Positions 14,113 to 50,407 of a DNA stretch of 52,595 nucleotides are shown here, piece after piece; positions within the stretch are counted from its first letter, which is position 1; every line of letters starts with the position of its first letter. Made by a program: the position numbers and the translations under genes. Below the pieces are notes generated by a model. The model ran no database searches. It was not told the DNA's origin and saw only the letters and a list, made by a program, of their open reading frames with translations. The DNA comes from a virus. Lineage: Duplodnaviria > Caudoviricetes. The DNA is taken from the IMG/VR virus record IMGVR_UViG_3300020438_002387, positions 1-52,595 of that record; one strand, written 5' to 3'.

Positions 14113-15207
14113 ATGGCACTACGTCTAAGACGCGGAACTGAAAGCGAACGTCAGAACTTAGTAACACCTTTATCGGAAGGTGAACTTATATATGTAACCG
14201 ATACAGGAAAACTGTTCATCGGTAATGGCACGGCAACCGGCGGCGTTGAAGTTATCGGCAGCGGCGGAGGTGGTGGCGCTACTACACTAGATGCATTAAC
14301 CGATACTGATTTAACAGGTTTTACAGACGGTGATGTACTAACATACATCGCAGCATCAAATAAGTGGGAGCCAATTCCAGTTCCTGGTGCTAGTGCAATT
14401 GGAATAAACGATCTTACTGACGTTGATATTACACCAAGTGCTTTGGATATGTTAATATATGACGGTTATAACTTTGTTACAGTTCCAGTACAAACAATCT
14501 TTCAAGAACAACAAAACTGGAGAGTAAATATTGTTGGTGACGACTCGACTATACTAGTTGATACGGACACTAATAGTTTTAGAGGTACATTATTCGGTAC
14601 CGTAGAAGGTGATATAAAAGGTAGTATATTTGGCGACGATAGTACATTATTAGTAGATGCTGTAAGCAATAAGATTAGTGCAAATAGTGTGCTTTCGTCT
14701 ATCGTAGACACAGGTTTAATATATGGATCGCCGCCAGAGCGCGAAGACGGATTAAGAATTTTTATACCTAATGGTTCGTCACTCAATGTTGTTTCACACA
14801 ACGGAGCACCTGAGGAGCCTACAGCAACATCCCCAGGAGACTTTATTTCATCAATTTCGCTACTAGGTACAACTGATACTTCAACTTCTAAAGTAGCAGG
14901 AGCAATAATTTCACAATGGGACGCCACAGCAGATTTAAACACAGATTATCCTAGAGGGAATATCTTCTTTGCTGTAGGACAAAACAGTAATGATCCTAAT
15001 CTTGTTGCAGAACTTGATTACACTGGAAACTTTACTTCTAAATCTATATCGCCTGGAACTTATGCAGATGCTGCTGCACGTGATGCCGCAATTGCATCCC
15101 CAGTTGCGGGTATGATGGTATTCTTAACAGACGGCGATGGTGCAGGAAATCCTAAGTTTCAAGGAAATACAGACGGAACAATAACAGGATGGGTAAATCT
15201 AAATTAA
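14113..15207 (+). CDS. putative tail fibre / virion fibre protein
   Basis: N-terminal RLRRGT…GELIYVTDTGKLFIG motif typical of phage fibres, poly-Gly linker, repeated LxxLTDxD and GDDSTxLVD motifs; ATAAATA box at 14073. Confidence 0.7.
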   Translation: MALRLRRGTESERQNLVTPLSEGELIYVTDTGKLFIGNGTATGGVEVIGSGGGGGATTLDALTDTDLTGFTDGDVLTYIAASNKWEPIPVPGASAIGINDLTDVDITPSALDMLIYDGYNFVTVPVQTIFQEQQNWRVNIVGDDSTILVDTDTNSFRGTLFGTVEGDIKGSIFGDDSTLLVDAVSNKISANSVLSSIVDTGLIYGSPPEREDGLRIFIPNGSSLNVVSHNGAPEEPTATSPGDFISSISLLGTTDTSTSKVAGAIISQWDATADLNTDYPRGNIFFAVGQNSNDPNLVAELDYTGNFTSKSISPGTYADAAARDAAIASPVAGMMVFLTDGDGAGNPKFQGNTDGTITGWVNLN

Positions 15208-15953
15208 TGCTGAGAGGTATATTAGGACACCCCTATTTAGATTTATATAGTTACGTAGACTTAACATCTTTTGATAAGCTACACTCTGAAATATGCAGAG
15301 CATTTGTACTAGGTAAAAACTTTGCAGGCAACGGCAATTTACAACTAGAAAAGTACGATCAAGAAAACGTCAACCTAGATGCATACAATGGCGATATAAG
15401 TCCGGTTTGGCTAATGTATGAAAAATACTTAAAGCTATCTAACGATGATCCTATTAAGGTTGCAGGAGAAGGATTAAACGAAGAACAACTTATTCTATAC
15501 ATAAAATATGCATTTGGTGCATACAACCCGTGGCATGTTTATAATGTGTTTGATAAAATAGATGAAAAAAGAGTTCTTTCTCCGATACATCACCTTTTCC
15601 CTAACCTAATAACTTGGATAGACAATCTTGATATTTTTTCAAATGTTACAAGAGCATATTTTCTTTTAATAGAACAAGATGGTATATCTGTTGAACATTG
15701 TGATCCTTCCCCGCATCCAGATATACCTAGAGAATTTATACACATAAAATCTTGCGACAGCAGACCGTTTTATGTAAGAGAGTATAAAAATTCAGAAAAG
15801 ATTTATATGAATTCTAGAGTTACATATTTTAATGATCAAGATTGGCATGGTGGAGAAGCGTCTAAAAAAACTACCTATTCATTACGTATCGACGGAATTT
15901 TTACAGAGACATTTCGAAAGCAATTGAAAGGCAAAGCTGGTGCAATACGGTAA
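15207..15953 (+). CDS. putative Fe/2OG DSBH oxygenase (paralog of 23841)
   Basis: EHCD…EFIHI…FNDQDWHGG…LRIDG; TAATG coupling to the fibre gene. Confidence 0.6.
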   Translation: MLRGILGHPYLDLYSYVDLTSFDKLHSEICRAFVLGKNFAGNGNLQLEKYDQENVNLDAYNGDISPVWLMYEKYLKLSNDDPIKVAGEGLNEEQLILYIKYAFGAYNPWHVYNVFDKIDEKRVLSPIHHLFPNLITWIDNLDIFSNVTRAYFLLIEQDGISVEHCDPSPHPDIPREFIHIKSCDSRPFYVREYKNSEKIYMNSRVTYFNDQDWHGGEASKKTTYSLRIDGIFTETFRKQLKGKAGAIR

Positions 15954-16434
15954 AAGAATTGAAATTAATAATTTAAAAGAAATACAACAAGAATTAATTA
16001 ATTATAATTTTTTTAAGGCAGTACCAGACCTTGAAAGTTTTAATGGACCTTTAAAAAAGAATTCGACTTCTGGTATTACATTTTCTACCCTGCCTAACTT
16101 ACCAAAACTTAAAGAATTTTTAGAATCAACTGTAAACACAAATCTTATAACACATTTTCATATAATAAATATAGGACCAATGGAGCACAGTCCTATACAT
16201 CATGATGACGACGATGCTCCTTGGGGATTAAATATTCCTATTTTAAATTGCGAATATTCTAATACAATCTGGTACGATGACAACGATAACGAACTTGAGC
16301 GTATATGTTTAGATACTGTACATTTTTTGAATACTGTTGCTATGCATCAGGTACTTAATCACTGTGATGAAAATAGACTAGCTATGTCTATTAGATTTGC
16401 AGGTACACACGATCTAGATAAAATTATAAAATGA
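15940..16434 (+). CDS. putative Fe/2OG DSBH oxygenase
   Basis: PIHHD…LNIPI…MHQV.N…RLAMSIR. Confidence 0.6.
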   Translation: MQYGKRIEINNLKEIQQELINYNFFKAVPDLESFNGPLKKNSTSGITFSTLPNLPKLKEFLESTVNTNLITHFHIINIGPMEHSPIHHDDDDAPWGLNIPILNCEYSNTIWYDDNDNELERICLDTVHFLNTVAMHQVLNHCDENRLAMSIRFAGTHDLDKIIK

Positions 16435-16991
16435 GTATCTATAAAATAATTTGTACAGGCAATCCACACAAACCCGGAATAGCAAAATCTGTATTTGAAC
16501 GTTTTCCTAATACAACTTTTTTACATTTATCTAATGGTTATGATCTAACATCATTAGATGGACAGAATAAATTTAAGTCTATTATAAAAAATTATAATGT
16601 TTTCATCAATGTTTCTCAATTAAAAGATAATTTTCAAGAACAACTTCTTAAAATAGCACACAAAGAAAGTATGACTGGACATGTGTTTAATATAGGAAGT
16701 ATTGCAGAATATAAAAGATGGGAATGGTATAATTCAGCATACACTGAAGAAAAAAGAAGTCTACGTGAAACTAGCTTAGATTTATGCACCCAATACTTTA
16801 AAACAACTCACATTGTTGCCGGAGGGTTTCAAGACTCGACTTCAACAGATTCGTCTAGAATGGACCCAATAAAAATTGTTCAAATAATAGAGTTTATTTT
16901 AAACCTTGATATAAATATTCCTATAATAGGAATTGAAAAGATAATTGATAAGGAATTAGCTGAACAATTAAAAGGAAAAACACAATGGTAA
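16431..16991 (+). CDS. short-chain dehydrogenase-like Rossmann protein
   Basis: ICTG…GIA, FNIGS, YTEEK (YxxxK). Confidence 0.6.
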   Translation: MSIYKIICTGNPHKPGIAKSVFERFPNTTFLHLSNGYDLTSLDGQNKFKSIIKNYNVFINVSQLKDNFQEQLLKIAHKESMTGHVFNIGSIAEYKRWEWYNSAYTEEKRSLRETSLDLCTQYFKTTHIVAGGFQDSTSTDSSRMDPIKIVQIIEFILNLDINIPIIGIEKIIDKELAEQLKGKTQW

Positions 16992-17842
16992 AATACAAGT
17001 TACACGAAAACGGATGGACTGTGTTGCTCGAGGACTTTGACTTTTGCTTGGCTACACAAGAAGATATAAACGATATTGCAAAATTAGTTGCTACTAACAC
17101 ATGCGTGGTTTGTAAAAATCAAAATTTAAGTACTCAAGACGAAGTTAGAATTGTTAAAATGTTTAAAGATCCTCAATACTTTGACACACGTAACGAAAAT
17201 TCTACAGATAATATGTTTAGAGGAGCAGAAGTTGATGGATCAGAAAATATAATATTAAGAGTATCAGCTGAAAAAGACGAGGAAGGTTTAACTGGAATTG
17301 CCGGGCATGATAGCGAAATGCAGTGGCATGCTAATGATCAAACAACACCGGAGAGAAAATCTATAGTATGGCTATATTCTGTTAAAGGTAGCAAAGGTTC
17401 TAGAACAACTTATAACAATAATATAATGTCATACGAACATTTAGATATTGAAAAAAGAAAAATTCTCGAAAACCTAAAACTTACTATTTTACAAAACGTG
17501 TCTCTTAGAGAAGACGAGGATGACGGAGCTGCTAAAATTGAAAACTATACTCCAAATTTAGTTGTAGAAAATATTGCAGGGAAACGAGGATTTTATTTTC
17601 CTTTTTTACAAATATCTGGCTTTGAAGGACTAACAGAGGAAGAAAGTAAAGAAATAATTAATTGGTTATCTGAGTACACTACGCAAGAAAAATTTTGTTA
17701 TCATCACGATTGGGACGATGGTGATGTTGTAATTGCAGAACAATGGCTAGGTATACACAAGCGGTGGCCTTTTAATCTTGTTGAAGACAGACTGCTTCAT
17801 CGAATTGCATTTGATTTTCCTGATCAAGATTATAAATCTTAA
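16985..17842 (+). CDS. TauD/TfdA-family dioxygenase (HxN variant)
   Basis: WHAN, YHHDWDDGDVVI, IHKR, LHR. Confidence 0.8.
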   Translation: MVKYKLHENGWTVLLEDFDFCLATQEDINDIAKLVATNTCVVCKNQNLSTQDEVRIVKMFKDPQYFDTRNENSTDNMFRGAEVDGSENIILRVSAEKDEEGLTGIAGHDSEMQWHANDQTTPERKSIVWLYSVKGSKGSRTTYNNNIMSYEHLDIEKRKILENLKLTILQNVSLREDEDDGAAKIENYTPNLVVENIAGKRGFYFPFLQISGFEGLTEEESKEIINWLSEYTTQEKFCYHHDWDDGDVVIAEQWLGIHKRWPFNLVEDRLLHRIAFDFPDQDYKS

Positions 17843-18486
17843 GGCAAGTCGTCTATAACAATATATTTACCGCTAATTTTTTGTGCTTTGGCGGCAGAAT
17901 TCATTAGAGCTTTCCACTTATCTAATCCGTCGTGACGAGCTATAATTATATGCATTCTGTCTTCGTTACTGTTGTTTACTACGCTATGATCATAATGTAA
18001 ATTCATAGCATAGACTCCGCCTTGTTCCATTATTAATTCTTCTCCGTCTCCCCAGATCCATTTACATCCTTGCGGATTATTTAAAGCAACATTAATATTT
18101 TCAATAAGTTTCATACTAGAGTCATTATGCATTTCTATCTTACCGCCGGCTCTAAGTAGCATAAATCTAACCCTGCCGTATTTGTTACACGGAAAAACTT
18201 CTTTAAGCCATTTAGTTGTTACGGGACATTTGTCTGCTATTTCTGTCCATATATAATCATTACTAGCATCTTTGCCTTGCTTATATCCATATGCATCAAA
18301 GTTTTCATGCTTGTCTGCACCTAGTCCATGTATAGTTAAACTTTCCCATCCGTTATGTCCATATTCGCTTCCCCTATGTGGCGTAAAGTTATCTAAAAGA
18401 GTAAATGCTTCTTTAAGCATTTGTTCATACGGGATCGAAATATCTAATTTTAAATACTTGCCATCTGATTGAAAGTATTCTCTCAT
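17839..18486 (-). CDS. aspartyl/asparaginyl beta-hydroxylase-like 2OG oxygenase
   Basis: RVRFMLL..GG.IEMHND…HSVVN…DRMHII; ATG18486 couples with the upstream TGA. Confidence 0.8.
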   Translation of the reverse strand: MREYFQSDGKYLKLDISIPYEQMLKEAFTLLDNFTPHRGSEYGHNGWESLTIHGLGADKHENFDAYGYKQGKDASNDYIWTEIADKCPVTTKWLKEVFPCNKYGRVRFMLLRAGGKIEMHNDSSMKLIENINVALNNPQGCKWIWGDGEELIMEQGGVYAMNLHYDHSVVNNSNEDRMHIIIARHDGLDKWKALMNSAAKAQKISGKYIVIDDLP

Positions 18487-19913
18487 GTTAAAATCTTTAC
18501 TTGATGTGTCATTGGGCAGTAGCTTTTCCAATCGTGTTCTTGCCATGGTGGTGCATTAAATTCGTTTATATCCCATAAATTAAAATCTTTAACTTTTCCA
18601 AAATTTATTTCATCTTTATTACAATAGAAGTCTCCTAATCTAGAAGGTATAAACAGCCAGATATTTTCATCAATATTTTTTAATGTGTCTATTAAGTTAT
18701 TTTCTCTTGCTACTCGATATTTAACATTTGCTGAATTTACATATGGTATATGATTAAAAACATCACTAACATTGACGAATGTATTTTTATTAGGTTCTAA
18801 AAAATTATATGTATTAGGAGCAAAATAATCTAATAATTTATAATCAAATTTTAATTGTCTAACTTTATTCCAAAGACTTTGAAAATCATCAAAGTTTTGT
18901 TCAAACGAATCCCACCAATCTCTTATTTTTTTCTCATGATTAATTAAATCATAATTATAGCTATCAGGAACAAACTTCATTTGATTCATATAAAATGTTG
19001 CATAATCTTTTCCATCCCATTCTTCTACTAATGACTTCATAAAACTAAGTACCGCATAACTTATATCAGTAAATGTAATTTTAGTATTGTTGTGATATCC
19101 CAATGTTAAAAGATTGTGTATCCAATTTAATCCCGTTCCCGTAGTAACATAGTGGTCAACAGGATTTTCTATATTAATGTTCTCTGGTAGAGCATCGCTA
19201 TTCCACGGAGTAACCATTGTATTACATACTAGTGTATAATTAAAAAGTTCTGGAACGTGGCGCAAGTAAACGTGATCATATTCGTAATACAAATAAAACT
19301 TATTAATTCGTATGTCGTCGCCTACATCGCAGAATACAGCATTGTTTTTTAACCCTATATCTATAAAATTCCAGCCATGTCTTTGCTGCGTATAAGTTCT
19401 AGAAGTATTTCCTTGTTCAATCCATACTGGTATTTCGGTATCGCCCCGGACACACTCTTCACTTCTAATTGGTTCTATTTTAGTATGAGTTTTATTCCAA
19501 TCAACATCGCCCATTTCAGGAGACCCTAGTCTCCTATATTCTTCCAAGTTCATAATAAAAAATTGATTATGAATTTCATAATAAGCATCGTTTCGATCTA
19601 GTACATGTCCTGCTAAAGTAAATTGTTCTTTGCATTTTTGTTCAACACTAGAAAATAATCTATCAGACAATCCTAAATGAGTTCCAGTTATAACAACAAC
19701 AGCATGTGTATAAAATTTATCGCTAGCCGCTCTTTTTAATAATTTATCTGTGGAAGTGTCTATTATTATGTCATATCCATTTTGTATTGTTTTTGATAAA
19801 AAGTAATCGCTTACATTTTTAGCAGTTTCTCTAGACGAAGCACTATACTGATTATTAATATTATCAAATATACAATAAACAATTTTATTTTGTTTCTTAA
19901 TTCTATAATCCAT
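18483..19913 (-). CDS. hypothetical two-domain protein; C-terminal half possibly SAM/Rossmann-like
   Basis: 476-aa ORF; TGTGLN…FTDIS…VNVSDVF pattern. Confidence 0.55.
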   Translation of the reverse strand: MDYRIKKQNKIVYCIFDNINNQYSASSRETAKNVSDYFLSKTIQNGYDIIIDTSTDKLLKRAASDKFYTHAVVVITGTHLGLSDRLFSSVEQKCKEQFTLAGHVLDRNDAYYEIHNQFFIMNLEEYRRLGSPEMGDVDWNKTHTKIEPIRSEECVRGDTEIPVWIEQGNTSRTYTQQRHGWNFIDIGLKNNAVFCDVGDDIRINKFYLYYEYDHVYLRHVPELFNYTLVCNTMVTPWNSDALPENINIENPVDHYVTTGTGLNWIHNLLTLGYHNNTKITFTDISYAVLSFMKSLVEEWDGKDYATFYMNQMKFVPDSYNYDLINHEKKIRDWWDSFEQNFDDFQSLWNKVRQLKFDYKLLDYFAPNTYNFLEPNKNTFVNVSDVFNHIPYVNSANVKYRVARENNLIDTLKNIDENIWLFIPSRLGDFYCNKDEINFGKVKDFNLWDINEFNAPPWQEHDWKSYCPMTHQVKILT

Positions 19914-19914
19914 T

Positions 19915-20649
19915 TTAATTTCCTAATTTATTAAATGCCCACATACGTTCCTCACACCACCAACAAGAACCACAGTGTGAACCAATGTGTTCGTCATTTT
20001 CGCAACTCCTAGTTACTGGAAATAGTGTTTCTGTTACTCCTAAAGAATCATACATCCTTGCTATGTCTTTTTTATTATGATTAAACCATGGTATATATGC
20101 ACGTTCGTCTAATTTTAATTCGTCAACAGGGTTTCCATCAATTGTCAGAGGACATTCTTCTCCAAAATGTGTTGCCTTTTCAACAGGTATTGTAAATCCA
20201 AATAAAGGATGAATTGTATCTTCAGATCTAAATTCATTATGCCAGTCTGGTTGCTGACCATTCCAAGTTTTGTAAACAGTACTCGGAGGAAATTTAGTAA
20301 GCCCCAAATATATTATATCGACTTCGTTTTTATCTAATGCACTAGTTAACATATTAATATAAAATTCTGCAGATTCGTCAGGTTCAACAATTTCTCGATG
20401 TATTACATAATTATTATTTCCAGTCAGTTCTGCACATTTTTCTACAACTGCATAAAAATATTTTTCTAATGCAGGTCTTCTTTTTTCTGCCATCATATTA
20501 TATACATGTACAGTTTCTTTAACATTAGACATCAAAACATATAGCAACAATGCACTATCTGCACCACAACTTACTCCAACGCCAACAGGGCCTTTTTTAT
20601 AAATTCCGATATCGACGTCAGCATTTTTTATATAATCTAAGTTTACCAT
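19915..20649 (-). CDS. QueC-like PP-loop ATPase
   Basis: GVSCGADS PP-loop; TRSCE…HCGSCWWC.ER Zn motif. Confidence 0.75.
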   Translation of the reverse strand: MVNLDYIKNADVDIGIYKKGPVGVGVSCGADSALLLYVLMSNVKETVHVYNMMAEKRRPALEKYFYAVVEKCAELTGNNNYVIHREIVEPDESAEFYINMLTSALDKNEVDIIYLGLTKFPPSTVYKTWNGQQPDWHNEFRSEDTIHPLFGFTIPVEKATHFGEECPLTIDGNPVDELKLDERAYIPWFNHNKKDIARMYDSLGVTETLFPVTRSCENDEHIGSHCGSCWWCEERMWAFNKLGN

Positions 20650-21197
20650 CTTGTATTCCTATGCAAAACTTCAAAAAATTTGTCTGGGAATATTTCCCAT
20701 ACTGTTTGATTAGTGCCTCTATAAAACACATCTTTTATACGTTTCATTTGTCCTGTTTTTTCCATGGCCGGAGCAAATACTCTATGTACTATTTGTTGTG
20801 TTCCGGCTTCGTTTTCATTAGAAGTTATAAATGCCTTAGCTCCTTTAGGAAGCCATTCTAAACAAGCAGGAATTAAAAATTGTCCTGTTGCGTGTTGGTG
20901 TGTGACAATCTGGTTACGTGTTCGTAAACTAACTAACGGTAATTTATCTGTAAACACACATGTTCTAGCAGCAACTCTAAATGTATTAGGGCCCATTACA
21001 TCGTCAAATGTATGTGCTGCTACACTGCCTACAGCTTCATTATTATAGTATAATATCCAAGTCTGCCATTTATCTTCTTTACGAAAACAATCTACTAGCA
21101 TATGCTGTGACGCATTATTCTCAAAACCCCTACTAGCAGCATCTTTATAAAATTGCTCTAAATCTAACTGTTCGGACCAAGGAATTATTTTATACAT
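20643..21197 (-). CDS. hypothetical protein, possibly GNAT-like
   Basis: Size and the WILYYNNEAVGSVA strand pattern; weak. Confidence 0.5.
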   Translation of the reverse strand: MYKIIPWSEQLDLEQFYKDAASRGFENNASQHMLVDCFRKEDKWQTWILYYNNEAVGSVAAHTFDDVMGPNTFRVAARTCVFTDKLPLVSLRTRNQIVTHQHATGQFLIPACLEWLPKGAKAFITSNENEAGTQQIVHRVFAPAMEKTGQMKRIKDVFYRGTNQTVWEIFPDKFFEVLHRNTRW

Positions 21198-21873
21198 TAA
21201 GTGCCTTCTCTATAAAATCTGCCGGATAATTGGTTCTAAAACTATTCCAACATAATTTATCCATAACGTTCCACGGCTGTGGAACATTCCACTCGATGCC
21301 TAACTTTTCTAAATTCTTATGCATTTCGTCTTGTCTTGTGCTATATATATGACTTTCAACATCAACAATACTTACATGAGGCTCATCTTTATGGTATGTA
21401 AAGAAGTAATTCATACTTTTTAGTTTACCATCAACAACAAAGTAACTACTCGGGTGCATACTGTATTTGTGTAGTCCTAAACTCTTATGTGCTTTTATAA
21501 TTTCAAGCATTTGTTCTTGCCAATCAGGTAATACACTGTCATAATTGTGTGTTGTACAGTTTGCTCTATTCCAAAAGTCTTTACCTTCAATTTCTAGATA
21601 GACTTTACGTTCTTGTTCATCTATACTAAAGTTAGGAATATGCTCAGGATAATGCATCTTCATAAGTTTAAGGAATTTTATTTCACGATTAAACTTTTCA
21701 TCCATTAACGCAGGATCAACTACTTGATTTTGTCCTTTATGATATTCACCATCGTTATAATACCATTGTACAAAAGTAGTTAAAGTACTGTTAGCAAGAC
21801 TAGTGTAAATTAAATTATTTCGACATAGTCCTGTACCCGGAATATCATTATAATAATATTGCATTTTGTCCAA
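21190..21873 (-). CDS. protein-kinase-like fold protein, probable pseudokinase
   Basis: REIKFL alphaC-like, YLEI hinge, degenerate catalytic loop HKYSMHPSS; AGGAGG RBS supports the TTG start. Confidence 0.55.
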   Translation of the reverse strand: MDKMQYYYNDIPGTGLCRNNLIYTSLANSTLTTFVQWYYNDGEYHKGQNQVVDPALMDEKFNREIKFLKLMKMHYPEHIPNFSIDEQERKVYLEIEGKDFWNRANCTTHNYDSVLPDWQEQMLEIIKAHKSLGLHKYSMHPSSYFVVDGKLKSMNYFFTYHKDEPHVSIVDVESHIYSTRQDEMHKNLEKLGIEWNVPQPWNVMDKLCWNSFRTNYPADFIEKALNV

Positions 21874-21906
21874 CTCAATTCCTCCTGTATACTATAATTT
21901 ATCTAA

Positions 21907-26341: not shown

Positions 26342-26346
26342 GTAAT

Positions 26347-28532: not shown

Positions 28533-28580
28533 ATTTATCAGGACTAAGTTAACTGCACACTTTTCTTGGTAAATATTAAG

Positions 28581-39898: not shown

Positions 39899-39900
39899 AA

Positions 39901-41937: not shown

Positions 41938-43304
41938 TGAAGAAACTCTGAATAATCAATCTTTTCCATAACAGTCATATGGTTAAAATTATGTTCTAGT
42001 ACTTCTTGCATATCTTTATACATGTCTAGCCATTCAATATCTGATTTATTTGTAAGTTCTTGTGTTAGTTTACAAATAGCGTCCATCCTAGCTGTAGGAG
42101 AAACAATAGCATCATAACTTTCGTCCCACCATTTATCAAAAGTTTTGAATCCTAGTTGTTTAAGCTGTGCAAGCGAGTTTGGATGACTTACAACAACAAA
42201 GGGATGATGACATAACATTGGCTTAAATATTTTTTCTGACATAAAGAGACAGGTTTTACGCTCTTCATTAAACGCAGTTTCCGAAGTTAAACTAAACCAA
42301 GTTCTAAGATATGTATCTTTAAACATTGTCCAAACATGATTTTTATTAAAATCTTCTTGATCTAATACTCGAGGCAACGTTGAAAGAAAATCATTGGCAT
42401 TCTCTTTTGTAAAGCTGGGATGAGCCTCCCATCCTCCGGGTATTGCATGCCTATGAGTAATCGGTAAAGTAGACTGTCTAGGGTGCCCTCCTAAAAATTT
42501 TGAATGACTGAAGTCACAAATTTTAGGATCTAATAAGTTATAATAATTAAGCATAACACCAAGTGTCATCCTGTGCTGACGTGTAACTCTGTTCAAACAA
42601 CTAAAACTTTTCATATCTTCTAATTGTTGCTTGTATTGAATTTGTTCTTCAAAGGAAATAGCGTCAGCTTCGTTTTGATATGTTAATAGTCCGCAAAAAG
42701 AAATAGACGGAACAATATTAATCTTATCTTTTTTATTACCGTAATATTTGTCGTGAACTTCTTTTTCTTTTAAATTTGATGTTGTAATAATAATTTGACT
42801 TGGCGGGATTTTATGTTTTTCTAATGATGTATAAAGTACATCATAATAATCTCTACGAACACCAACACTTTTTAGTACTTTAGTTTCTAATAACGGAAAT
42901 CCTTCCCAACCTTGGTCAATATGTATAATACATCTACGCTTTGCTGCTGATCTTATTACTATGGGTCTATGTAGCGCCAATAAGTCAAACAAATTACGTC
43001 TAGAAGAATCGTAGCCGCCGAGCCAATTAGCAGGAGGACCTGATGTACCAATTTCGTATATATAACGCATTTTTTTAGCGTCTTTAACAGTTATTTCTCG
43101 GACTTCTCCTAAAGATCTACAATGATCTTTTAAGAAGTGGTTACACAAAACGTAACGTCCATGAAAAAATGGATCCATTAAATTACGTTCTGGCACTCGT
43201 TTACCTTTTTTGTTCTTAACAATTTTATCGTGTGCAAAATAATACACTATATTTGTTTTACCATCTACTTCTTCAATATAGTGTAGTTTGTTTCTAGTCG
43301 TCAT
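41934..43304 (-). CDS. putative glycosyltransferase-like protein (paralog of 35458)
   Basis: CLNR..R.HR…TSET…MSEKIFKPM…HPFVV…DESYD. Confidence 0.5.
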   Translation of the reverse strand: MTTRNKLHYIEEVDGKTNIVYYFAHDKIVKNKKGKRVPERNLMDPFFHGRYVLCNHFLKDHCRSLGEVREITVKDAKKMRYIYEIGTSGPPANWLGGYDSSRRNLFDLLALHRPIVIRSAAKRRCIIHIDQGWEGFPLLETKVLKSVGVRRDYYDVLYTSLEKHKIPPSQIIITTSNLKEKEVHDKYYGNKKDKINIVPSISFCGLLTYQNEADAISFEEQIQYKQQLEDMKSFSCLNRVTRQHRMTLGVMLNYYNLLDPKICDFSHSKFLGGHPRQSTLPITHRHAIPGGWEAHPSFTKENANDFLSTLPRVLDQEDFNKNHVWTMFKDTYLRTWFSLTSETAFNEERKTCLFMSEKIFKPMLCHHPFVVVSHPNSLAQLKQLGFKTFDKWWDESYDAIVSPTARMDAICKLTQELTNKSDIEWLDMYKDMQEVLEHNFNHMTVMEKIDYSEFLQ

Positions 43305-44706
43305 AATGCGTGATACTCCCTTCATGCATTTCTATTAGTGGTATTGTATCATCCAATCCAATTGTATTTAACCAGTCAGTAAGTATCTTTGGAAATACAC
43401 CTATGTCCTTGCCTCTGCGCTTATCGTACTGTGCATAAAAACTTTTAAAATCGTGCTGTAATTTATCTTTGTCTTCAGTTGTGCGCCTATGTGGTTTATC
43501 TACAACTTCAATATAATCTATTAACCGCTGTATTTGTGCCTTTTCGCCTGAATTAAATAAAGGATTATTCTTATTTTTTTCAAACCAATTTTCTAATTGT
43601 TCTCTGCAATGATCCTTAATATGATCGGGCAATGCTAACGGGCTCATAAAACTCGGCCAACGTAAAATATTTAAATCGACAGCAGGTTTATGAGGTGCAT
43701 ATTTTGCTTTTAATTCTGCCATGTCATCTAAGAATTCTGTAATACTAAACAAACTTAAACTTGTAATAGTCATCATAATTGTTGCACATCTTAAACGTCC
43801 ATTACTAATAACATATTCTAGGTTATCTTTCCAAGTATTATATTCTAGTCCGTCTCTTATATAATCTGCTTGCAATCCAGTAGCTTCGCAACTAGTAAAC
43901 AAGTCAAACTCTTTATAATTATCAAGTTTAGTAAAATCAACTAAGTCTTGTATTAAATCATCTTTCACCATAAGATTTGAATTAATTGCAATTCTTAAAT
44001 TAGGAGCATGATTTTGTTTTACAACTTTTGCAAAGTTCCAAAACTGATGACTTACTAATGCTTCGCCGCCAGTTATCCTAAGTTCTTCTAGTTCACTGCT
44101 TAATTGCGGCCACCATTTAAAAAATGCTTCTACATAAGGATTGCCTTCGTTAAATTTTCCGTACGGTTCGGTCCATTCACCGTCATGATGATAGGCGCCT
44201 GCGCCATCTGATTTCATTTGTTGATATGGACCATTCTTTTTAATATCTTGTGCCCATGTAGTGCTATAACTTGAATTACAATAACTACATGCTAAGTTAC
44301 ACGTTCTATCAAAACTAATTTCTAATGTTTTTGGAATAACATCTTCATATGGATCATTTTCTGCGATTGCAATAATATCTTTTTCTTTGTATATTTGACT
44401 CTTATATACTCTATCAGAAATATTATCTCTACCAATATCTTCAATTTTCCAGCAGTACTCACATTCAGGTGGTCGTTCACCTTTAATCATACGCTCACGT
44501 TGTTTCTTTTTGTGTGCTGTATTATGCAACGCACTAGGATTAGTTTTAATTTCTTCCTTGTCAATAGGATGAGGAATAGGCAAGTGACAACTATGTGTCA
44601 TACCATGGCCTAGATGGATAGTTGCATTAAGCCATTTAGCAGCACAGAAGCTAGGACTAACTGAATCTAATACTTTCTTACGCCAGTCAAATAATTCTTT
44701 ACTCAT
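43294..44706 (-). CDS. radical SAM enzyme with N-terminal Cys/His domain
   Basis: FCAAKW…HSCH…CEYCW; CNLACSYC; TGGE. Confidence 0.9.
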   Translation of the reverse strand: MSKELFDWRKKVLDSVSPSFCAAKWLNATIHLGHGMTHSCHLPIPHPIDKEEIKTNPSALHNTAHKKKQRERMIKGERPPECEYCWKIEDIGRDNISDRVYKSQIYKEKDIIAIAENDPYEDVIPKTLEISFDRTCNLACSYCNSSYSTTWAQDIKKNGPYQQMKSDGAGAYHHDGEWTEPYGKFNEGNPYVEAFFKWWPQLSSELEELRITGGEALVSHQFWNFAKVVKQNHAPNLRIAINSNLMVKDDLIQDLVDFTKLDNYKEFDLFTSCEATGLQADYIRDGLEYNTWKDNLEYVISNGRLRCATIMMTITSLSLFSITEFLDDMAELKAKYAPHKPAVDLNILRWPSFMSPLALPDHIKDHCREQLENWFEKNKNNPLFNSGEKAQIQRLIDYIEVVDKPHRRTTEDKDKLQHDFKSFYAQYDKRRGKDIGVFPKILTDWLNTIGLDDTIPLIEMHEGSITHYDD

Positions 44707-46115
44707 AGTGTTTTGCACTCCCAATAAAAATCTTCCATTTCAGGAAATACTTCTAAAAAATTCTTTCCTCTACGCTTGTCGTGCTCGTCAAAGAATGCAA
44801 CGAAGTTTTTTCTTCCTTCGATAAGTTCTTTTTCCTTAATATGCTTAGGACTCTGCTGCATTACCCAATATATCCTTTGTAATCTATTAATTTCATAGTC
44901 GTACATACCGATGCCGCAAAGTGGCGGCCAATGACTATGTTCTTTATTTTGGAACATCCAAGTGACTTGGTCTTCAAGCATTTTTAAATAGTTGTCATCT
45001 TGAACTATTAGTATTGATTGATGCGGTGGCCAACGTAGATAACTAACATCTAAACTCACTGCATGGCTTTTTGCAGGATCAGTGTGATGTTTTTTACGCA
45101 AGTCTAACAAGTCTTTCATTAGGTCTTGATAACTAGACAAACTTAATGAGTTGTATGTTGCCATATTTGTAATTTTGCAATCTGGTATTTCTGTTAACAC
45201 TTTATCGCAATTGTCAATCCACTGGTTATAATCCATACCATGTCTAATATACTCAGCACGTTTGCCGTGAGCTTCTGCACTAGTATAAATTTTAAAATCT
45301 TTGATTAAACCTTCGCCTTGAATGCGTTTGGCCTTTTCTATCATCTTGTCAACTAAACCGTCTGGTACACAAAGATTGCTGTTTATGTTTAATTCTAAGT
45401 TAGGATTAGGATTCTCAATAATATAATCTAAAACTTTAAAAGTATCTTTTGCCATTAATGGCTCACCGCCAGTAATTCTAAATGTATGCAAATCAGGATA
45501 CAGTTTTGGCCACCATTTCCAAAACGCTTCTACATAAGGATTATGTTCTCTATGCGGAATAGGCATTTTGCCATTTTGTTTAATCCAATCTAAATTATTA
45601 AAATTATATGTAGTGCCAGTATACCCGCCATGCTTTTGTATTTCTTGCATCCAAGTACTACTAATTTCAGGTGAACAGTATGTACACGCAAAGTTACAAG
45701 CATTTGAAAAACTAACTTCTACATAGCTAGGATTTGTATTTTCATCCGGAGAGCTCTTTGCAATAATATCTTTTTCAGGCCAAGCCCATTCTTCTGCACT
45801 TTTAGTTATTCTGTCACTAAATGTAGAACCATCCGACGAGTCTTCAGCTGTCCAGCAATAGTCACATTCTTCTGGACGTTCACCTTTAAGCATTTTAGCA
45901 CGTTGCTCTTTCTTAAACTTAGTGTTATGTAACGCACTAGGATCTACTTCAATTTCTTCTAAAGGTATTTTATGTGTTGCTGGGTGATGGCAACTGTGCG
46001 TATGACCTGTTTGCAAGTGAAGTGTAACTTGCTTCCATTTAGCAAGGCACATAGAACAACTGATGTTATTGAGCTCTTCTCTTACACTCTTATATCCTGT
46101 TAAAACGTCACCCAT
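44703..46115 (-). CDS. radical SAM enzyme, tandem paralog of 43294
   Basis: MCLAKW…HSCHH…CDYCW; CNFACTYC; TGGEP. Confidence 0.9.
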   Translation of the reverse strand: MGDVLTGYKSVREELNNISCSMCLAKWKQVTLHLQTGHTHSCHHPATHKIPLEEIEVDPSALHNTKFKKEQRAKMLKGERPEECDYCWTAEDSSDGSTFSDRITKSAEEWAWPEKDIIAKSSPDENTNPSYVEVSFSNACNFACTYCSPEISSTWMQEIQKHGGYTGTTYNFNNLDWIKQNGKMPIPHREHNPYVEAFWKWWPKLYPDLHTFRITGGEPLMAKDTFKVLDYIIENPNPNLELNINSNLCVPDGLVDKMIEKAKRIQGEGLIKDFKIYTSAEAHGKRAEYIRHGMDYNQWIDNCDKVLTEIPDCKITNMATYNSLSLSSYQDLMKDLLDLRKKHHTDPAKSHAVSLDVSYLRWPPHQSILIVQDDNYLKMLEDQVTWMFQNKEHSHWPPLCGIGMYDYEINRLQRIYWVMQQSPKHIKEKELIEGRKNFVAFFDEHDKRRGKNFLEVFPEMEDFYWECKTL

Positions 46116-47047
46116 TATACGTCCTTTAGTTCTTCGATAAATCTTTGATTATCGGTTCTTGAAGGATTTTGATAAACTGATTTAAAAAATTTACTTTGCT
46201 GTGCATCTAATGGCTGGGCTGCAATAGGTATATCTAATTTAGCTAGAATTTTATCGCCTAAATCTTCAATAGAATCTTGCAATCCTTCCATTGATACCCT
46301 TGGTTCAACTTCTTTCCAAAGACTGTTTAGGTATTTAAAATCTCTAACTTGTACATAATCCCAATCTGTACACATTGTTTTATACAGACCTTCTCGTGCG
46401 CCATAGATTGCCCAAAGGCCATTGTCAACATCTGCACCTACCATAGTCCAAATGTATAACCAATGTAAACATCTCCAATGATTATCTTTAAACTCTTGGG
46501 GTGTAATTCTTACGCCTCGGTCAGTAGCAAGTTTTACACCTTCTCTAAAACCTGCTCTCCATGCTTGTCCTGGTGTTTCATTATTAAATACGTCTGAATA
46601 AACACTATTCATTTGAATATACTGCGCATCCCAGCAAAAATCTACTTGTGCATGTGCATTAGTAGGATCTGCGTTTTCGTGTGTGCGCATGTTTAATACA
46701 TATTCAGTAGGCCAGCATTTAATGCCGCCGTTGCCGTACATCAATCCATTTATTTCATTTTGGCCGCACCAACTAATAACAGCATTTTGTAAATCAACAT
46801 GTTCAGTAAAATCAATTTCTTGATTTAGAAATTCTGCACGTATTCTGTTATCACCATCGACTGTAATAAATCTATCTGTTTCACTTAATTTTGCACAAGC
46901 CTTGTGTGCAGCATCACTACCTTCTACTCCGTGAACACGTTTAGCCCATGGAACTTTTTGACATAAATCTGCATAGTTTTTTTCTGCGTTTGGCTCGTCA
47001 TAAGACAAATAAATTATGTCATAATCAATGGGCTTAAATTTACTCAT
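46115..47047 (-). CDS. GT-A fold glycosyltransferase-like protein (paralog of 39224)
   Basis: DIIYLSYDEPNA, TVDGD, GNGGIK, GFREG. Confidence 0.65.
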   Translation of the reverse strand: MSKFKPIDYDIIYLSYDEPNAEKNYADLCQKVPWAKRVHGVEGSDAAHKACAKLSETDRFITVDGDNRIRAEFLNQEIDFTEHVDLQNAVISWCGQNEINGLMYGNGGIKCWPTEYVLNMRTHENADPTNAHAQVDFCWDAQYIQMNSVYSDVFNNETPGQAWRAGFREGVKLATDRGVRITPQEFKDNHWRCLHWLYIWTMVGADVDNGLWAIYGAREGLYKTMCTDWDYVQVRDFKYLNSLWKEVEPRVSMEGLQDSIEDLGDKILAKLDIPIAAQPLDAQQSKFFKSVYQNPSRTDNQRFIEELKDV

Positions 47048-48385
47048 TTATTGTACTACCTCATGTGCATAGTGTTCAAAATATTTTGCTGTGTATATAC
47101 TTACATTAACTCCATCTTGCTCAACGTCATATATGAAAGGGATAGTAGTTGGCTTTTCCCAAAGTAACTCTTCGGCATTTAACTCTAGCGTTCTATAAAG
47201 AATATTAGGATCATATTTTTCTGTTACACTAAAATACAACTTGTCTTTAACACTATAACCGCTAGTATTTAAAAATGCTTTAGTATACGGATTAAGTACA
47301 ATTGTCCAGCACTTATCAACAAAATTCTGTTGTATAATAACATCATAGTCCTTAGTAGTATTATAATTATAAATCTGAGTGCCTACTAGTACTAATTGTC
47401 CGTTTTTTAAAGTATCTTTATCTACTACAGTATGTTCAGTCTCATAAAACAAAGTTTTGTTATTTAATGAATCAAATTTTAAAAGTTCTTCTGAATCCCA
47501 AACAATTAAATGTCTATCAGATTCTTTCCAAAAAACTGTGTTCTGTTGTTTTTCAAACTGCTCAGAGGCATATTTAATACTAAAAATTTTATTATTACTT
47601 AATACAATCATACCCAAGTTTAGGTCGTTAGTGTCGATAACTGTTAGGTGCTTGTTTTCATCAGCGTATAAAATAACATCTTGTACGATAATTTCACAAT
47701 TTGCTTTTCTAAATTTAGTTTCTGCTTTTTGGTCTTTTTTAATTCTGTAAACTGTTCCTCGATGCCAAACATGTTGACCTTCTGTATGTGATAATTCGTC
47801 ATACCAAACATCAACATGCACACCTTCATATTCAGGTTGCATTATTAAACGATTTGAAACGTGTGTAACTGTTGACGTGTCTGTTAATAGCACATCCTTT
47901 ATAAAAAGTTCTGCATTGCCAAATACTTGACCTTTATCGTTGTCTGCTAAAAGTTTGTAAACATTATCTTCATAGAATACTATTTGATCTTTTACATATT
48001 CGCCATCAACTGCCCATATATAAACATCAACACCGTCGTATGCTGGTTCAAGTGTGCTATGGCCGTCATTATAATTTTTAATTAACGGTAACTCATAACA
48101 TAAAGTAGCTGCAATTTTATTTTCGTCTTCATATGTTTTACGTTTTAACATCCTGTCTTTAATTGAAACATCGTATGTTACGACCCATTCGTCAAGTCTA
48201 TACTCGCCTTTAAGTAAAGGTTTTGCTTCATCCTGCGTAACTACTAGCAATTCAAAATCTTCTGTATCATATTTTCTATTACTAATTTTCTTAACAGCAC
48301 CAGTTTGTTTTTCATAATAAACATATGCTTCACTTGAAACAGCTTCTACTTTTAGTTTTCTTATTAAACTTGCTAACTCAGACAT
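47048..48385 (-). CDS. hypothetical protein with internal aromatic beta repeats
   Basis: 445-aa ORF; two clear YxGVxVxxW…GxVY-type repeats. Confidence 0.6.
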   Translation of the reverse strand: MSELASLIRKLKVEAVSSEAYVYYEKQTGAVKKISNRKYDTEDFELLVVTQDEAKPLLKGEYRLDEWVVTYDVSIKDRMLKRKTYEDENKIAATLCYELPLIKNYNDGHSTLEPAYDGVDVYIWAVDGEYVKDQIVFYEDNVYKLLADNDKGQVFGNAELFIKDVLLTDTSTVTHVSNRLIMQPEYEGVHVDVWYDELSHTEGQHVWHRGTVYRIKKDQKAETKFRKANCEIIVQDVILYADENKHLTVIDTNDLNLGMIVLSNNKIFSIKYASEQFEKQQNTVFWKESDRHLIVWDSEELLKFDSLNNKTLFYETEHTVVDKDTLKNGQLVLVGTQIYNYNTTKDYDVIIQQNFVDKCWTIVLNPYTKAFLNTSGYSVKDKLYFSVTEKYDPNILYRTLELNAEELLWEKPTTIPFIYDVEQDGVNVSIYTAKYFEHYAHEVVQ

Positions 48386-49217
48386 TTAACAAACTCCTAT
48401 ATCTTTCAACAACTGGAGTTTTTTCTAAAAAGCTATTTTCTGTATAATGCAATATACCAGTTTGTATAAAATTACCTATTTTTATATTGCAATCTTTTGA
48501 AATATAAAATCCAACTTTGTCTAACCAAGACGATTCTACTTCTTTCCAATCTTGGCAATGTGCTTTCATATGCACAAATGTAGGCAATGACGATATTCTA
48601 TTAGTAATTTCATCTTCACAATCTAAAATTTTTGCAACAATTGACGCACATACATCTATACTAACTTGTTGTGGTCTAGACTGTGGCATTAATTGTTGCT
48701 CGTAAAACGTTTCCCAGTTGTTAACCACTAACTCTAACCATGCATAAAAGTCTTGTGCAAACTCACATTTTTTGAAATAATGAAATCCGCTAAACAAATT
48801 AGGAAGATTGCTGTCAATAAATGTACGTCGATAAAACTGTGTATCTGCAGGAGTTCCCCTGTAATTTAAAACTTTATTAGTAAAGAATATATCGTAATTT
48901 GATAAAAAGTCCCACCAAACATCAATATTCTGTAGTACTAACATATCTGTGTCCATTACGATAGTTTCATTGTAAGGACTAGCATGATATAACTTCCAGC
49001 GATTTTCTACTTTCCATTCACTAGTTTCTGCATGATCGCCATATGGGATTGGAATAATTTGATCAAATAAGTTTTTATTTGGTACTTCGTCATTTGTAAC
49101 TATGCTAATTTTTGTATCAGGATTATGTGTACATAAACTCATTGCTAACAAACAGGCTTGATCTACATAATTATCAGTTTCATTATTTTGAGCTAATACT
49201 ACTATTCCTTTATCCAT
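48378..49217 (-). CDS. GT-A fold glycosyltransferase (GT8/mannosyltransferase-like)
   Basis: SPYNETIVMDTDM (DxD), FVHMK. Confidence 0.65.
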   Translation of the reverse strand: MDKGIVVLAQNNETDNYVDQACLLAMSLCTHNPDTKISIVTNDEVPNKNLFDQIIPIPYGDHAETSEWKVENRWKLYHASPYNETIVMDTDMLVLQNIDVWWDFLSNYDIFFTNKVLNYRGTPADTQFYRRTFIDSNLPNLFSGFHYFKKCEFAQDFYAWLELVVNNWETFYEQQLMPQSRPQQVSIDVCASIVAKILDCEDEITNRISSLPTFVHMKAHCQDWKEVESSWLDKVGFYISKDCNIKIGNFIQTGILHYTENSFLEKTPVVERYRSLLNV

Positions 49218-50064
49218 TTTCTAACTCCTCGTCGATCATCCGTGTTAAGCTAAACTTGTTCATAACGTGTATGGTTAAGCCTTTTGTTCTTATAGAAGTG
49301 TATTCGCCTGTATAATTTTCTTTTTCAATAAGAAACATCATTTCGTCATTTTTCATTTGCCAAAGAATGTCCTTGTCGGCGGTGTAAAACATTGTTCCGG
49401 GCAATTCCTCAGCAAAACTACCCTGTGCAAATCCATTCATTATATGAATAGCAATACTAAATGCAAAGTCATTTCTAAAAAGATGAGACTTTATTTGATA
49501 TGTTCTTCTATAATGATGCCACTCGTCTTCAATGTGCTTAACTAAATCAAAAAACTTTTTATTAGTTTCTGTTTTTTTAAAAAACACAACAGTTGCCCAA
49601 TAAAAATCAACACTAACATCGTCAATTTTTTGAAATTCGTCTTCATTTCTAGCTTGAGAAATATCACTTGATTTTTTATATATCATAAAGTCTGCATCAG
49701 ATTCAAACACAGATGCTAGTAAATTATTAGATATAATGTAATCAGTATCTAATAGTAGTGTTTCATCATACGGAGATAATTCATATGCACTTGCTCGATT
49801 AGCATTCTTAAAGCCCGCAGATTTCTTTGACAATGCACCATCATAGAAATAACGCATATTTCCTTCTTCAGTATAATCTAGTTTAATTACTTTATCAAAA
49901 TCGTCAGTGCCGTATGTTTGCTCTAAGTATACGGGGCTGTCTGTTGCAAGAGACACAGGAACTTTTAGATATTTTTTGATACGTCTTGCTAAAAAAACTG
50001 CTTGTTTTACATAATCTAATTGTCCGTTATTTTTAGCAAAAAGAAATACACCTTTACTACTCAT
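49210..50064 (-). CDS. GT-A fold glycosyltransferase (paralog of 48378)
   Basis: SPYDETLLLDTDY, FRNDFAFS, HVMNK. Confidence 0.65.
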   Translation of the reverse strand: MSSKGVFLFAKNNGQLDYVKQAVFLARRIKKYLKVPVSLATDSPVYLEQTYGTDDFDKVIKLDYTEEGNMRYFYDGALSKKSAGFKNANRASAYELSPYDETLLLDTDYIISNNLLASVFESDADFMIYKKSSDISQARNEDEFQKIDDVSVDFYWATVVFFKKTETNKKFFDLVKHIEDEWHHYRRTYQIKSHLFRNDFAFSIAIHIMNGFAQGSFAEELPGTMFYTADKDILWQMKNDEMMFLIEKENYTGEYTSIRTKGLTIHVMNKFSLTRMIDEELENG

Positions 50065-50407
50065 AATCGACTAACTTCTCTACGCTTCTATTCTTTTTTA
50101 GGCTCATATAATCTGCGTGATAAGCATTTGCCGCTTCAAAATATTGTGTAAGAATTTTTTCATAAAATTCATCGACATTTTGAATAAGTGCAGGATTACT
50201 ATTATCGTCAATTAATACAATTTCGTCTTGATCTGCTTCAGCCATAGCTTTACAAAAGTTAATTAATTCTTTAGTAATTGTAAATTGTGACCCGGAATAA
50301 AAATACAATAGTCCTTCTTCAAATCTTTCTCGAAGAACACGTTTTTGATTGTTTAGTGTCATCATATAATTTGAAAAATCTAATGCTTTTTCAAGGCGCT
50401 CATCCAT
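50057..50407 (-). CDS. hypothetical phage protein
   Basis: AGGAG RBS; first gene of the leftward run. Confidence 0.75.
   Translation of the reverse strand: MDERLEKALDFSNYMMTLNNQKRVLRERFEEGLLYFYSGSQFTITKELINFCKAMAEADQDEIVLIDDNSNPALIQNVDEFYEKILTQYFEAANAYHADYMSLKKNRSVEKLVDYE

Follow-up and report, generated by a model that had tools for sequence, protein, structure and literature searches.

Gene content of the island

The IMG/VR virus record IMGVR_UViG_3300020438_002387 is a single virus contig of 52.6 kb (52,595 nt, approximately 35% G+C), the whole of which forms the window analysed here. Between a tail-fibre gene at 14113..15207 (+; Pfam Mtd_N, E 1.1e-9) and two paralogous fibre-like genes at the right edge lies an island of radical S-adenosylmethionine (SAM) enzymes, iron- and 2-oxoglutarate-dependent (Fe/2OG) oxygenases and glycosyltransferases which, to judge from its sequence, is probably a pathway that builds and edits a glycan. 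Translation of the window gave 63 non-overlapping open reading frames (ORFs), 39 of which lie between positions 15189 and 50407; they are named below by their first coordinate. Thirty-three of these 39 could be assigned to a superfamily, whilst the 26 unannotated ORFs gave only noise against Pfam at E<=5. An all-against-all BLAST comparison revealed the island to be made of paralogous families.

Glycosyltransferases and sugar enzymes

A sequence-only reading of the window had counted about six glycosyltransferase-like genes, four of which (48378, 49210, 46115 and 39224) are upheld, the other two being leads. Genes 48378 (48378..49217, -) and 49210 (49210..50064, -), related to one another by BLAST, have a family profile whose first ~120 residues match glycogenin (E 2.8e-6), and the two aspartates of their DxD motif (D89 and D91) are invariant. 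Pfam Glyco_transf_8 matches neither protein even at E<=5, and because the family profile alone makes the connection they are termed GT8-like rather than members of GT8. Gene 46115 (46115..47047, -) and its BLAST paralogue 39224 (39224..39898, -) likewise have an invariant DxD (D64, D66); an AlphaFold2 (AF2) model of this GT-A family (pLDDT 83.4) retrieved GT-A enzymes with Foldseek at E ~1e-4, including A64R of chlorovirus PBCV-1 (PDB 2p6w), SunS/ThuS and TarP. VIA matched it to a Leptospira glycosyltransferase (Z 10.5, root-mean-square deviation 3.2, 139 aligned), with nucleotidyltransferases of the same fold and the collagen enzymes GLT25D1 and LH3 at Z ~9; a sequence search of the PDB with the family profile found no match. 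The two leads are 41934 (41934..43325, -) and its paralogue 35458 (35458..36654, -), for which the nearest named cluster in the ESM Atlas is Glyco_transf_10 (0.78-0.79) and whose motifs we take to resemble those of GT10; their profile, too, matched nothing in a PDB sequence search.

The UDP-glucose/nucleotide-sugar 6-dehydrogenase gene ugd, also expected from the sequence-only reading, is present at 39901..41130 (-), matching Pfam, phrog_9148 (E 2e-102) and, below its cut-off of 189.8 bits, NCBIfam TIGR03026 (157 bits). Other tailoring genes are less securely placed. An SGNH-like hydrolase or acyltransferase at 41167..41937 (-) was recognised by eye from motifs (GCSYT, SGxGN and DxHP) conserved in eight homologues, and 34856 (34856..35461, -), the homologue of which follows the conserved module in phage RsoM2USA (see below), resembles class I methyltransferases weakly, through a profile match to MJ0882 in the PDB (E 0.013). 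The short-chain dehydrogenase/reductase once suggested has to be withdrawn, as Pfam finds none in the window, the search of unannotated ORFs at E<=5 included.

Radical SAM enzymes

Exactly 11 of the 63 translated ORFs carry a CxxxCxxC motif, and these are the same 11 genes that had been listed beforehand as radical SAM enzymes; Pfam, NCBIfam and PHROGs concur. The Pfam model PF04055 matches ten of them at E<=0.01, nine exceeding its gathering score of 29.5 bits. Gene 43294 falls below this score (22.7 bits) and 33804 has no Pfam match, both being matched by radical SAM models of NCBIfam or PHROGs.

Four of the 11 pass the curated cut-off (170 bits) of NF033640, N_Twi_rSAM, at 304-389 bits: 29254 (29254..30519, +; 329 bits), 32420 (32420..33871, -; 389 bits), 43294 (43294..44724, -; 304 bits) and 44703 (44703..46115, -; 329.8 bits, with 44% identity to ORF349 of RsoM2USA). 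This is a family name, not a function, and a search by title and abstract of the radical SAM and twitch literature found no paper on it. Four cysteines of the N-terminal domain (C23, C42, C84 and C87) are invariant in 32 sequences, Pfam SPASM matches the N-termini of 29254 and 32420, and the nearest solved relative, by family profile against the PDB, is MoaA (E 5e-6). The same type of search places the pair 33804 (33804..34862, -; motif CQASCPMC) and 38161 (38161..39243, -; Pfam, and NCBIfam BlsE at E 2.8e-7) nearest to the cytosylglucuronate decarboxylase BlsE (E 5.9e-7), and a trio also related by BLAST, comprising 30470 (30470..31420, +; previously entered as 30512), 31401 (31401..32423, -) and 37179 (37179..38174, -; also matched by Pfam), nearest to viperin-like enzymes (E 6.8e-14), in the core only. 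MoaA, BlsE and the viperin-like relatives all act on nucleotides or nucleoside sugars, and the BlsE-like gene 38161 lies just downstream of ugd with one GT-A gene intervening. Two singletons complete the set: 22796 (22796..23848, +; CNLACPHC), which has an N-terminal zinc ribbon (PF23545) ahead of PF04055, and 26347 (26347..27882, -; PF04055, 54.6 bits), which is weakly similar to B12-dependent methyltransferases (50 bits with the PhpK family model, the cut-off of which is 600). None of the island families reaches the cut-off of an NCBIfam peptide-maturase model, the SPASM/twitch-type matches being weak.

Domain fusions were sought in 86 long N-twitch proteins. Two are fused to GT2, one to Glyco_transf_7C and one to a carbamoyltransferase, whilst three join the domain to the GT-A family of the island itself, preserving the gene order 46115-44703; a further 15 are tandem repeats of the N-twitch domain. 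Around 64 of the 86 (P0241-P0326) have a single recognised N-twitch module and no further recognised domain; many of these are ~828 aa long, and their N-terminal ~360 residues match nothing in Pfam or the window.

A 12-sequence alignment was also used to search a one-genome-per-species collection, yielding 236 relatives of the N-twitch family, mostly in Bdellovibrionota. Four of 73 loci from this collection were phage-like. Amongst the 69 left, 26 have a glycosyltransferase, nucleoside diphosphate-sugar, carbamoyltransferase or flagellin cluster member within 6 kb, a count made without a background control; glycosyltransferases occur at 18 and ABC/ABC-2 exporter genes at nine. The commonest neighbour in bacteria is an unnamed family of ~315 aa (for example L141:11774-12718) with no Pfam match, found within 6 kb of the N-twitch gene at 24 of the 69 loci, mostly in Bdellovibrionota.

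Oxygenases and other island genes

Ten oxygenase-like genes had been proposed, of which nine are supported and one, 15940 (15940..16434, +), is marginal, with no Pfam match and E 1.4e-4 to a local AspH-like hidden Markov model (HMM). Two belong to the TauD family, 16985 (16985..17842, +) and 21942 (21942..22796, +), scoring 68.6 and 90.4 bits against PF02668 (cut-off 27). Five are AspH-like: Pfam PF05118 matches 17839 (17839..18546, -; E 6.4e-13, with HxD...H) and 27879 (27879..28532, -; E 0.003, and also the local HMM), whilst 24650 (24650..25174, +), 25171 (25171..25677, -) and 36647 (36647..37228, -), each with HxD...H, were joined to them through the local HMM, iterated from six seeds; the single seed 17839 did not spread. 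The resulting group has 17 members, in all of which HxD...H is invariant.

The last two, 15189 (15189..15953, +) and 23829 (23829..24650, +), are 31% identical paralogues of an unnamed family in which H-x-D, H and R are invariant, corresponding in 23829 to E181-H182-x-D184, H204, H239 and R252. An AF2 model of 23829 (pLDDT 83.9) gave 107 Foldseek matches in the PDB at E<=1e-3, with Fe/2OG oxygenases accounting for 39 of the 40 matches listed; it fits the base and nucleic-acid oxygenases T7H and ALKBH5 as well as it does protein hydroxylases. The 931 homologues found for this gene are all close and unnamed, and provide no functional lead.

Two genes once described as QueC-like ATPases, 19915 (19915..20649, -) and 28566 (28566..29261, +; SGGADS), do have a PP-loop and, by alignment, a QueC-type cysteine motif at the C-terminus, which in 19915 is also the only part matched by PF06508. 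They are not QueC equivalogs: against TIGR00364 (cut-off 150.3 bits) the former scores 22 bits and the latter has no match. They are accordingly designated PP-loop ATPases whose resemblance to QueC is confined to the C-terminus. The evidence for two kinase-like proteins, 21190 (21190..21873, -) and its BLAST paralogue 25655 (25655..26356, -), is weak, consisting of a profile match to TTK kinase in the PDB (E 1.5e-5) in a family with no invariant aspartate; 21190 belongs to an abundant conserved family, yielding 2695 homologues, all close and unnamed and without a functional lead. Four further proteins have no assignment: 16431 (16431..16991, +), without a match in Pfam, PHROGs or NCBIfam; 18483 (18483..19913, -), of 476 aa, with no family match and a 30% identical homologue in the close relative G005; 20643 (20643..21197, -), of 184 aa, with a faint match to FeeM (E 0.11); and 47048 (47048..48385, -), of 445 aa, with no family match and its family present in 63 of 82 clustered locus records.

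On the minus-strand block running from 50407 down to 31401, two similar cassettes stand in series. The first comprises a GT-A gene, two N-twitch radical SAM genes, a GT10-like gene, the SGNH-like gene and ugd; the second a GT-A gene followed by BlsE-like, viperin-core, AspH-like, GT10-like, methyltransferase-like, BlsE-like, N-twitch and viperin-core genes. A Kyte-Doolittle scan of the 63 ORFs detected no convincing membrane segment, the two marginal ones coinciding with a PP-loop strand. The earlier likening of the island to a natural-product cluster lacking its scaffold was a fair one, as neither a scaffold synthase nor a precursor peptide was seen; for precursor peptides and recognition elements the search was not systematic, and ORFs shorter than 80 aa were left out.

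A conserved module adjoining fibre-like genes

The right third of the island is a conserved module, in which a fibre-like gene is followed by a small ORF, two GT8-like genes, a GT-A gene, an N-twitch radical SAM gene and a second GT-A gene. Of 350 candidate stretches retrieved from IMG/VR with 46115, which is better conserved than any other gene of the module, 346 proved to be relatives, and 79 loci were kept. Across these, 46115 is present in all 79, 39224 in 78 and an N-twitch radical SAM gene in as many as 77; the small first gene 50057 (50057..50407, -; no family match), 48378 and 49210 are found in 74 each, and 50477/51519 in 68, whilst genes to the left of 39224 recur in only 0-29. In 68 of the 79 loci the module directly follows a fibre-like gene of the 50477/51519 type, and in 51 loci tail-collar fibre genes lie upstream of it. 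Four contigs that bear the phage glycosyltransferase module are filed within bacterial metagenome-assembled genomes (L098 in Fischerella, L114 in Crocinitomicaceae, and L153 and L155 in Neomarinimicrobiota), and are probably phage contigs binned with bacteria.

The variable parts of these sister islands were surveyed by scanning 126 proteins, 105 of them gene-cluster representatives of related islands. The scan identified NAD-dependent epimerase/dehydratases (one cluster occurring in 15 loci), DegT aminotransferase, carbamoyltransferase, hexapeptide acetyltransferase, GDSL and methyltransferase proteins, an NTP-transferase plus kinase, a cupin/mannose-6-phosphate-isomerase-like protein, class II aldolase and nitroreductase, as well as additional radical SAM enzymes and 2OG oxygenases. 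This set is a nucleotide-sugar toolkit. We found no description of the core module in the literature searched, and a search of titles and abstracts gave no paper on this island in jumbo phages.

The fibre borders

Both borders agree with the sequence-only reading. On the left, a TAATG junction at 15205-15209 joins the tail-fibre gene to the first oxygenase gene, which starts either at 15189 or at the ATG of this junction (15207). On the right, the island ends at the structural genes 50477 (50477-51466, -) and 51519 (51519-52442, -), recognised as a Ser/Thr/Gly-rich pair from BLAST and composition. In some relatives their domain makes up the first 330 residues of much longer proteins (869-2065 aa), and it is therefore regarded as a module of fibre or surface proteins.

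In the close relative G005 the flanks of the island are 85-98% identical, the fibre gene is only 49% identical and the left island arm is partly replaced. When 80 more distant loci are compared, 67-79 of them retain the genes as far as 13732 (67 for 13732 itself), only 17 a recognisable fibre gene 14113 and 0-11 the island genes immediately beyond it; because the flank is conserved whilst the fibre and the genes that follow it are rarely recognisable, the variable block is taken to start at the fibre gene. The conserved-to-variable boundary thus lies at this gene. The TAATG coupling is not kept in G005.

Promoter-like signals

A sigma-70-type promoter-like site, TTGACA-N17-TATACT, lies at 50436..50464 (-) before 50057, and is retained upstream of the homologue of this gene in 58 of 74 loci, compared to four of 76 at a control position. 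Near-consensus sites of the form TTGACA-N15-19-TATANT number ten in the window against 0.7 expected, a total reached in none of 100 shuffles. Six are just upstream of genes, at 683, 4403, 6922, 10007 and 11222 (+) and 50464 (-), and the same type of site precedes the FolE, exonuclease and ATPase genes.

The T4 late-promoter word TATAAATA occurs once in the window against ten expected, and not in an intergenic position, so no map of late promoters could be drawn. The word ATAAATA is depleted, at nine copies against 34 expected, and all nine (9253, 12867, 14073, 16165, 16911, 21906, 28538, 33968 and 41166) are on the local coding strand. Six of them precede a start codon at a distance of 30-91 nt, the genes concerned including the fibre gene, ugd and a TauD gene; parts of the island may accordingly carry a late-type signal.

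Source of the contig and neighbouring genes

The window comes from an uncultured aquatic jumbo myovirus, of whose genome it is only a part. Megablast searches with both halves of the window against 50,697 GenBank phage records found no near-identical phage, the closest cultured relatives being PA5oct-like phages and Ralstonia jumbo phage RsoM2USA. CheckV estimates completeness at 29-66% for related IMG/VR contigs of 104-236 kb, and the genomes are therefore approximately 350 kb in length, the island amounting to around one tenth. The assignment rests on this size, on the MoxR-like ATPase of the window, which shares 49% identity with its counterparts in PA5oct-type Pseudomonas jumbo phages, on a T4-type Gp23 capsid gene in two of the four related contigs searched, and on the location of island-gene homologues on contigs of 281-370 kb. 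A pelagimyophage origin was rejected, as the best cultured matches are jumbo phages and the homologues are on contigs of this length. The 'Moraphages', with four core glycosyltransferase groups (PMC12619734), may or may not be of the same lineage, and were rejected as a basis for any conclusion.

At 10085-12587 the MoxR-like AAA ATPase forms, together with a DUF2201 metallopeptidase/VWA-like protein, a highly conserved pair, the second gene of which has 496 relatives among 498 IMG/VR stretches. Further upstream, at 3230-6073, are 7-deazapurine-type genes for a phosphoribosyltransferase (3230), a HIT hydrolase (3970), GTP cyclohydrolase I (4487) and a QueE-like radical SAM protein (5180), all of which are conserved in G005; neither QueD nor DpdA was found in the window. 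These genes may constitute a base or nucleotide modification pathway apart from the island.

A probable glycan pathway and its possible acceptor

The sequence-only reading had proposed a phage-encoded pathway that builds a complex modification and installs it on virion fibres, capsid or the host surface. The glycan-building half of this proposal receives indirect support from the four to six glycosyltransferases, Ugd, the nucleotide-sugar enzymes of the sister islands, the N-twitch fusions and the radical SAM families with nearest solved relatives that act on nucleotides or nucleoside sugars, whilst the evidence on the choice between fibre, capsid and host surface points in more than one direction. 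The substrates, order of steps and acceptor set out here are what we infer. Most likely, an entirely soluble phage-encoded pathway would make unusual activated sugars, which four to six glycosyltransferases would link together; radical SAM and Fe/2OG chemistry, along with methyl, acyl and amide-type tailoring, would edit the sugars. The acceptor that we slightly favour, ahead of the host envelope and DNA, is the phage's own flanking fibre-type proteins (14113 on the left, 50477/51519 on the right), because the island adjoins the fibre genes and shares its variability with them, and its first oxygenase gene overlaps the fibre stop codon; the outcome would be fibres decorated with glycans particular to each phage strain. 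We put the probability that the fibres are the acceptor at about 0.35-0.4, and this sets the confidence in the reading as a whole.

A more detailed version, which we regard as rather doubtful, is that the N-twitch enzymes perform a radical edit of sugars, of a kind not previously described, at or after transfer. Each cassette of a glycosyltransferase and a radical SAM enzyme would then add one edited sugar, and shuffling of cassettes would generate strain-specific fibre glycans. Candidate edits are C-C bond formation, epimerisation, deoxygenation and decarboxylation of a uronic acid made by Ugd. Such exotic glycans would either protect the fibres or contribute to recognition of the host.

Several observations count against fibre glycosylation. 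By analogy with T4 early promoters, the conserved sigma-70-type site suggests early transcription by the host polymerase rather than co-expression with the late fibre genes, and an early promoter fits a role at the host surface or on DNA at least equally well. The TAATG coupling is absent from G005, the one close relative examined, where the gene beside the fibre is on the opposite strand. The GT-A and GT8 folds say nothing of the acceptor and the GT10 assignment is only a lead, whilst the similarities of the radical SAM enzymes mainly span the common core. O-antigen glycosyltransferases are usually soluble or peripheral, and a phage could borrow the initiating enzyme, flippase and ligase of its host; the absence of membrane proteins is for this reason weak evidence. 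In addition, the only published interpretation of such islands is modification of the host O-chain (PMC7029224).

The strongest competitor, which we nevertheless consider unlikely, follows this interpretation: the same glycan pathway would act early in infection on the host O-chain, capsule or another surface glycan, by way of a host lipid carrier, flippase and ligase, and would block superinfection. The host recognition cluster of pelagimyophages, which also has GT8, Ugd and radical SAM cassettes, has been read in this manner (PMC7029224). The conserved promoter suits the early expression that this would involve, and the ABC/ABC-2 exporters (9/69) and glycosyltransferases (18/69) at bacterial N-twitch loci point the same way. 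However, no initiating phosphoglycosyltransferase, flippase, polymerase, ligase or credible membrane protein is encoded among the 63 ORFs, and the tight placement within the fibre block, conserved in two distant lineages, would go unexplained; moreover, given the slow turnover of O-antigen, its modification would presumably be of little gain to a lytic giant phage.

It is improbable that the island hypermodifies the phage's DNA, with the oxygenases making or using a hydroxylated base on which the glycosyltransferases would build a tailored glycan. There is precedent, in that phage GT-A and GT-B enzymes place mono- to trisaccharides, including hexuronic acid, on 5-hydroxymethylcytosine (5hmC), and these known 5hmC-glycan enzymes are encoded alongside epimerases and kinases, in some cases close to structural genes (bioRxiv 10.1101/2023.12.21.572611). 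The early-type promoter, the resemblance of the 23829 model to T7H and ALKBH5 as well as to protein hydroxylases, the FolE, QueE and phosphoribosyltransferase genes 9-12 kb upstream and the two QueC-like ATPases within the island are also consistent with DNA as the substrate. Against this, neither the 63 ORFs nor the 105 sister-island representatives include a C5-methyltransferase, Tet/JBP oxygenase, thymidylate-synthase homologue, DpdA or QueD; the single match to the thymidylate-synthase family (330 bits) is like canonical ThyA, and neither QueC-like gene reaches the 150 bits of the QueC model (22 bits at best). Tet_JBP was also not matched in any of five long related contigs, but the control genomes gave no match either, and these contigs represent 15-66% of their genomes.

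Still less probable is a scheme similar to that of ribosomally synthesised and post-translationally modified peptides, in which the oxidative enzymes would act mainly on side chains of the fibre proteins, through hydroxylation, cross-linking or epimerisation, and glycosylation would be secondary, for instance following the collagen pattern, in which sugars are attached to hydroxylated residues. Many hydroxylases of proteins and amino acids are found among the AspH, prolyl-hydroxylase-like and TauD-type oxygenases, SPASM/twitch radical SAM enzymes are typically peptide maturases (here matched weakly by NCBIfam), GLT25D1 and LH3, two collagen enzymes, are among the VIA matches of the GT-A model, and the first oxygenase gene overlaps the fibre gene. 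Yet no family reaches a peptide-maturase cut-off, what the N-twitch family is fused to or lies beside suggests sugars, and no precursor peptide or recognition element was seen, albeit in an inspection that was not systematic. The least probable alternative is a free small molecule, such as a nucleoside- or aminoglycoside-like compound directed against the host or competitors: although BlsE, MoaA and viperin, the closest relatives of known structure, belong to nucleoside-antibiotic and cofactor pathways and the enzyme density is like that of a natural-product cluster, there is no exporter, resistance gene or scaffold enzyme, and six glycosyltransferase-like genes in a conserved fibre-gene setting better suit a polymer or macromolecular acceptor.

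If the product is indeed attached to the fibres, tailed phages of Gram-negative hosts would possess an enzymatically diversified form of virion glycosylation, and with it a new layer of host range determination; were the target instead the host or DNA, the island would represent a large anti-competitor or anti-restriction system. The lineage is abundant in aquatic metagenomes, single island genes having 931 and 2695 relatives. The BlsE-like pair, the two unnamed oxygenase families and the four N-twitch radical SAM enzymes are putative enzyme families for which clear candidate substrates can be named, and one cultured phage, RsoM2USA, carries the core module.

Comparison with known systems

Freeman and colleagues reportedly described, in 2023, glycans on the capsid and tail tube of mycobacteriophages. 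Virion glycosylation in these phages, and by A64R in chlorovirus PBCV-1, resembles the system proposed here in relying on soluble viral glycosyltransferases encoded near structural genes, without a host secretory route. To our knowledge, those systems consist of a few glycosyltransferases and methyltransferases, with no tailoring arm of radical SAM and 2OG enzymes. Surface-polysaccharide loci that are Wzx/Wzy- or ABC-dependent differ in encoding membrane proteins, which were not found among the 63 ORFs of the window.

The phage DNA-glycan clusters of Pyle et al. (bioRxiv 10.1101/2023.12.21.572611) also combine several glycosyltransferases with sugar-nucleotide enzymes, sometimes near structural genes. 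However, these are defined by an adjacent C5-methyltransferase and TET-like oxygenase (5mYOX), or by a thymidylate-synthase homologue, none of which was found among the 63 ORFs of the window or the 105 representatives.

The sole cultured carrier of the module among the 50,697 GenBank phage records is RsoM2USA, in which ORF355-347 (MG752970) are collinear homologues of 50477/51519, 50057, 49210, 48378, 46115, 44703, 39224 and 34856, with 33-44% identity. Here too the module comes directly after tail sheath and structural genes, but this version is short, at ~8 kb with one radical SAM gene, and all its genes are annotated as hypothetical; the available text of the RsoM2USA paper (PMC8504454) mentions radical SAM 0 times. 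Between the tail sheath and virion structural genes of this phage is also ORF358 (L001:12603-13577), an NAD-dependent epimerase/dehydratase annotated as hypothetical.

The closest parallel is the host recognition cluster of pelagimyophages and cyanomyophages, a hypervariable island of 34-45 kb, with a mean of 44.6 kb in pelagimyophages, situated in the structural region between VrlC and the neck gene gp14 (Zaragoza-Solas et al. 2020, PMC7029224); the window studied here breaks off within the fibre block. It similarly mixes fibre genes with glycosyltransferases, of which GT8 is the commonest, UDP-glucose 6-dehydrogenase and radical SAM cassettes, and an aspartyl/asparaginyl beta-hydroxylase is a core gene of pelagimyophages (PMC7029224). 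The island described here differs in belonging to a jumbo lineage of ~350 kb and in having 11 radical SAM genes and 9-10 oxygenases; the core module, the N-twitch family and such a density of oxygenases are not described for the host recognition cluster in the text of PMC7029224 consulted. It is nonetheless a hypervariable block of fibre and glycan genes between conserved flanks, as that cluster is. The type of island is thus already in print as the host recognition cluster (PMC7029224), of which the present locus is a large example.

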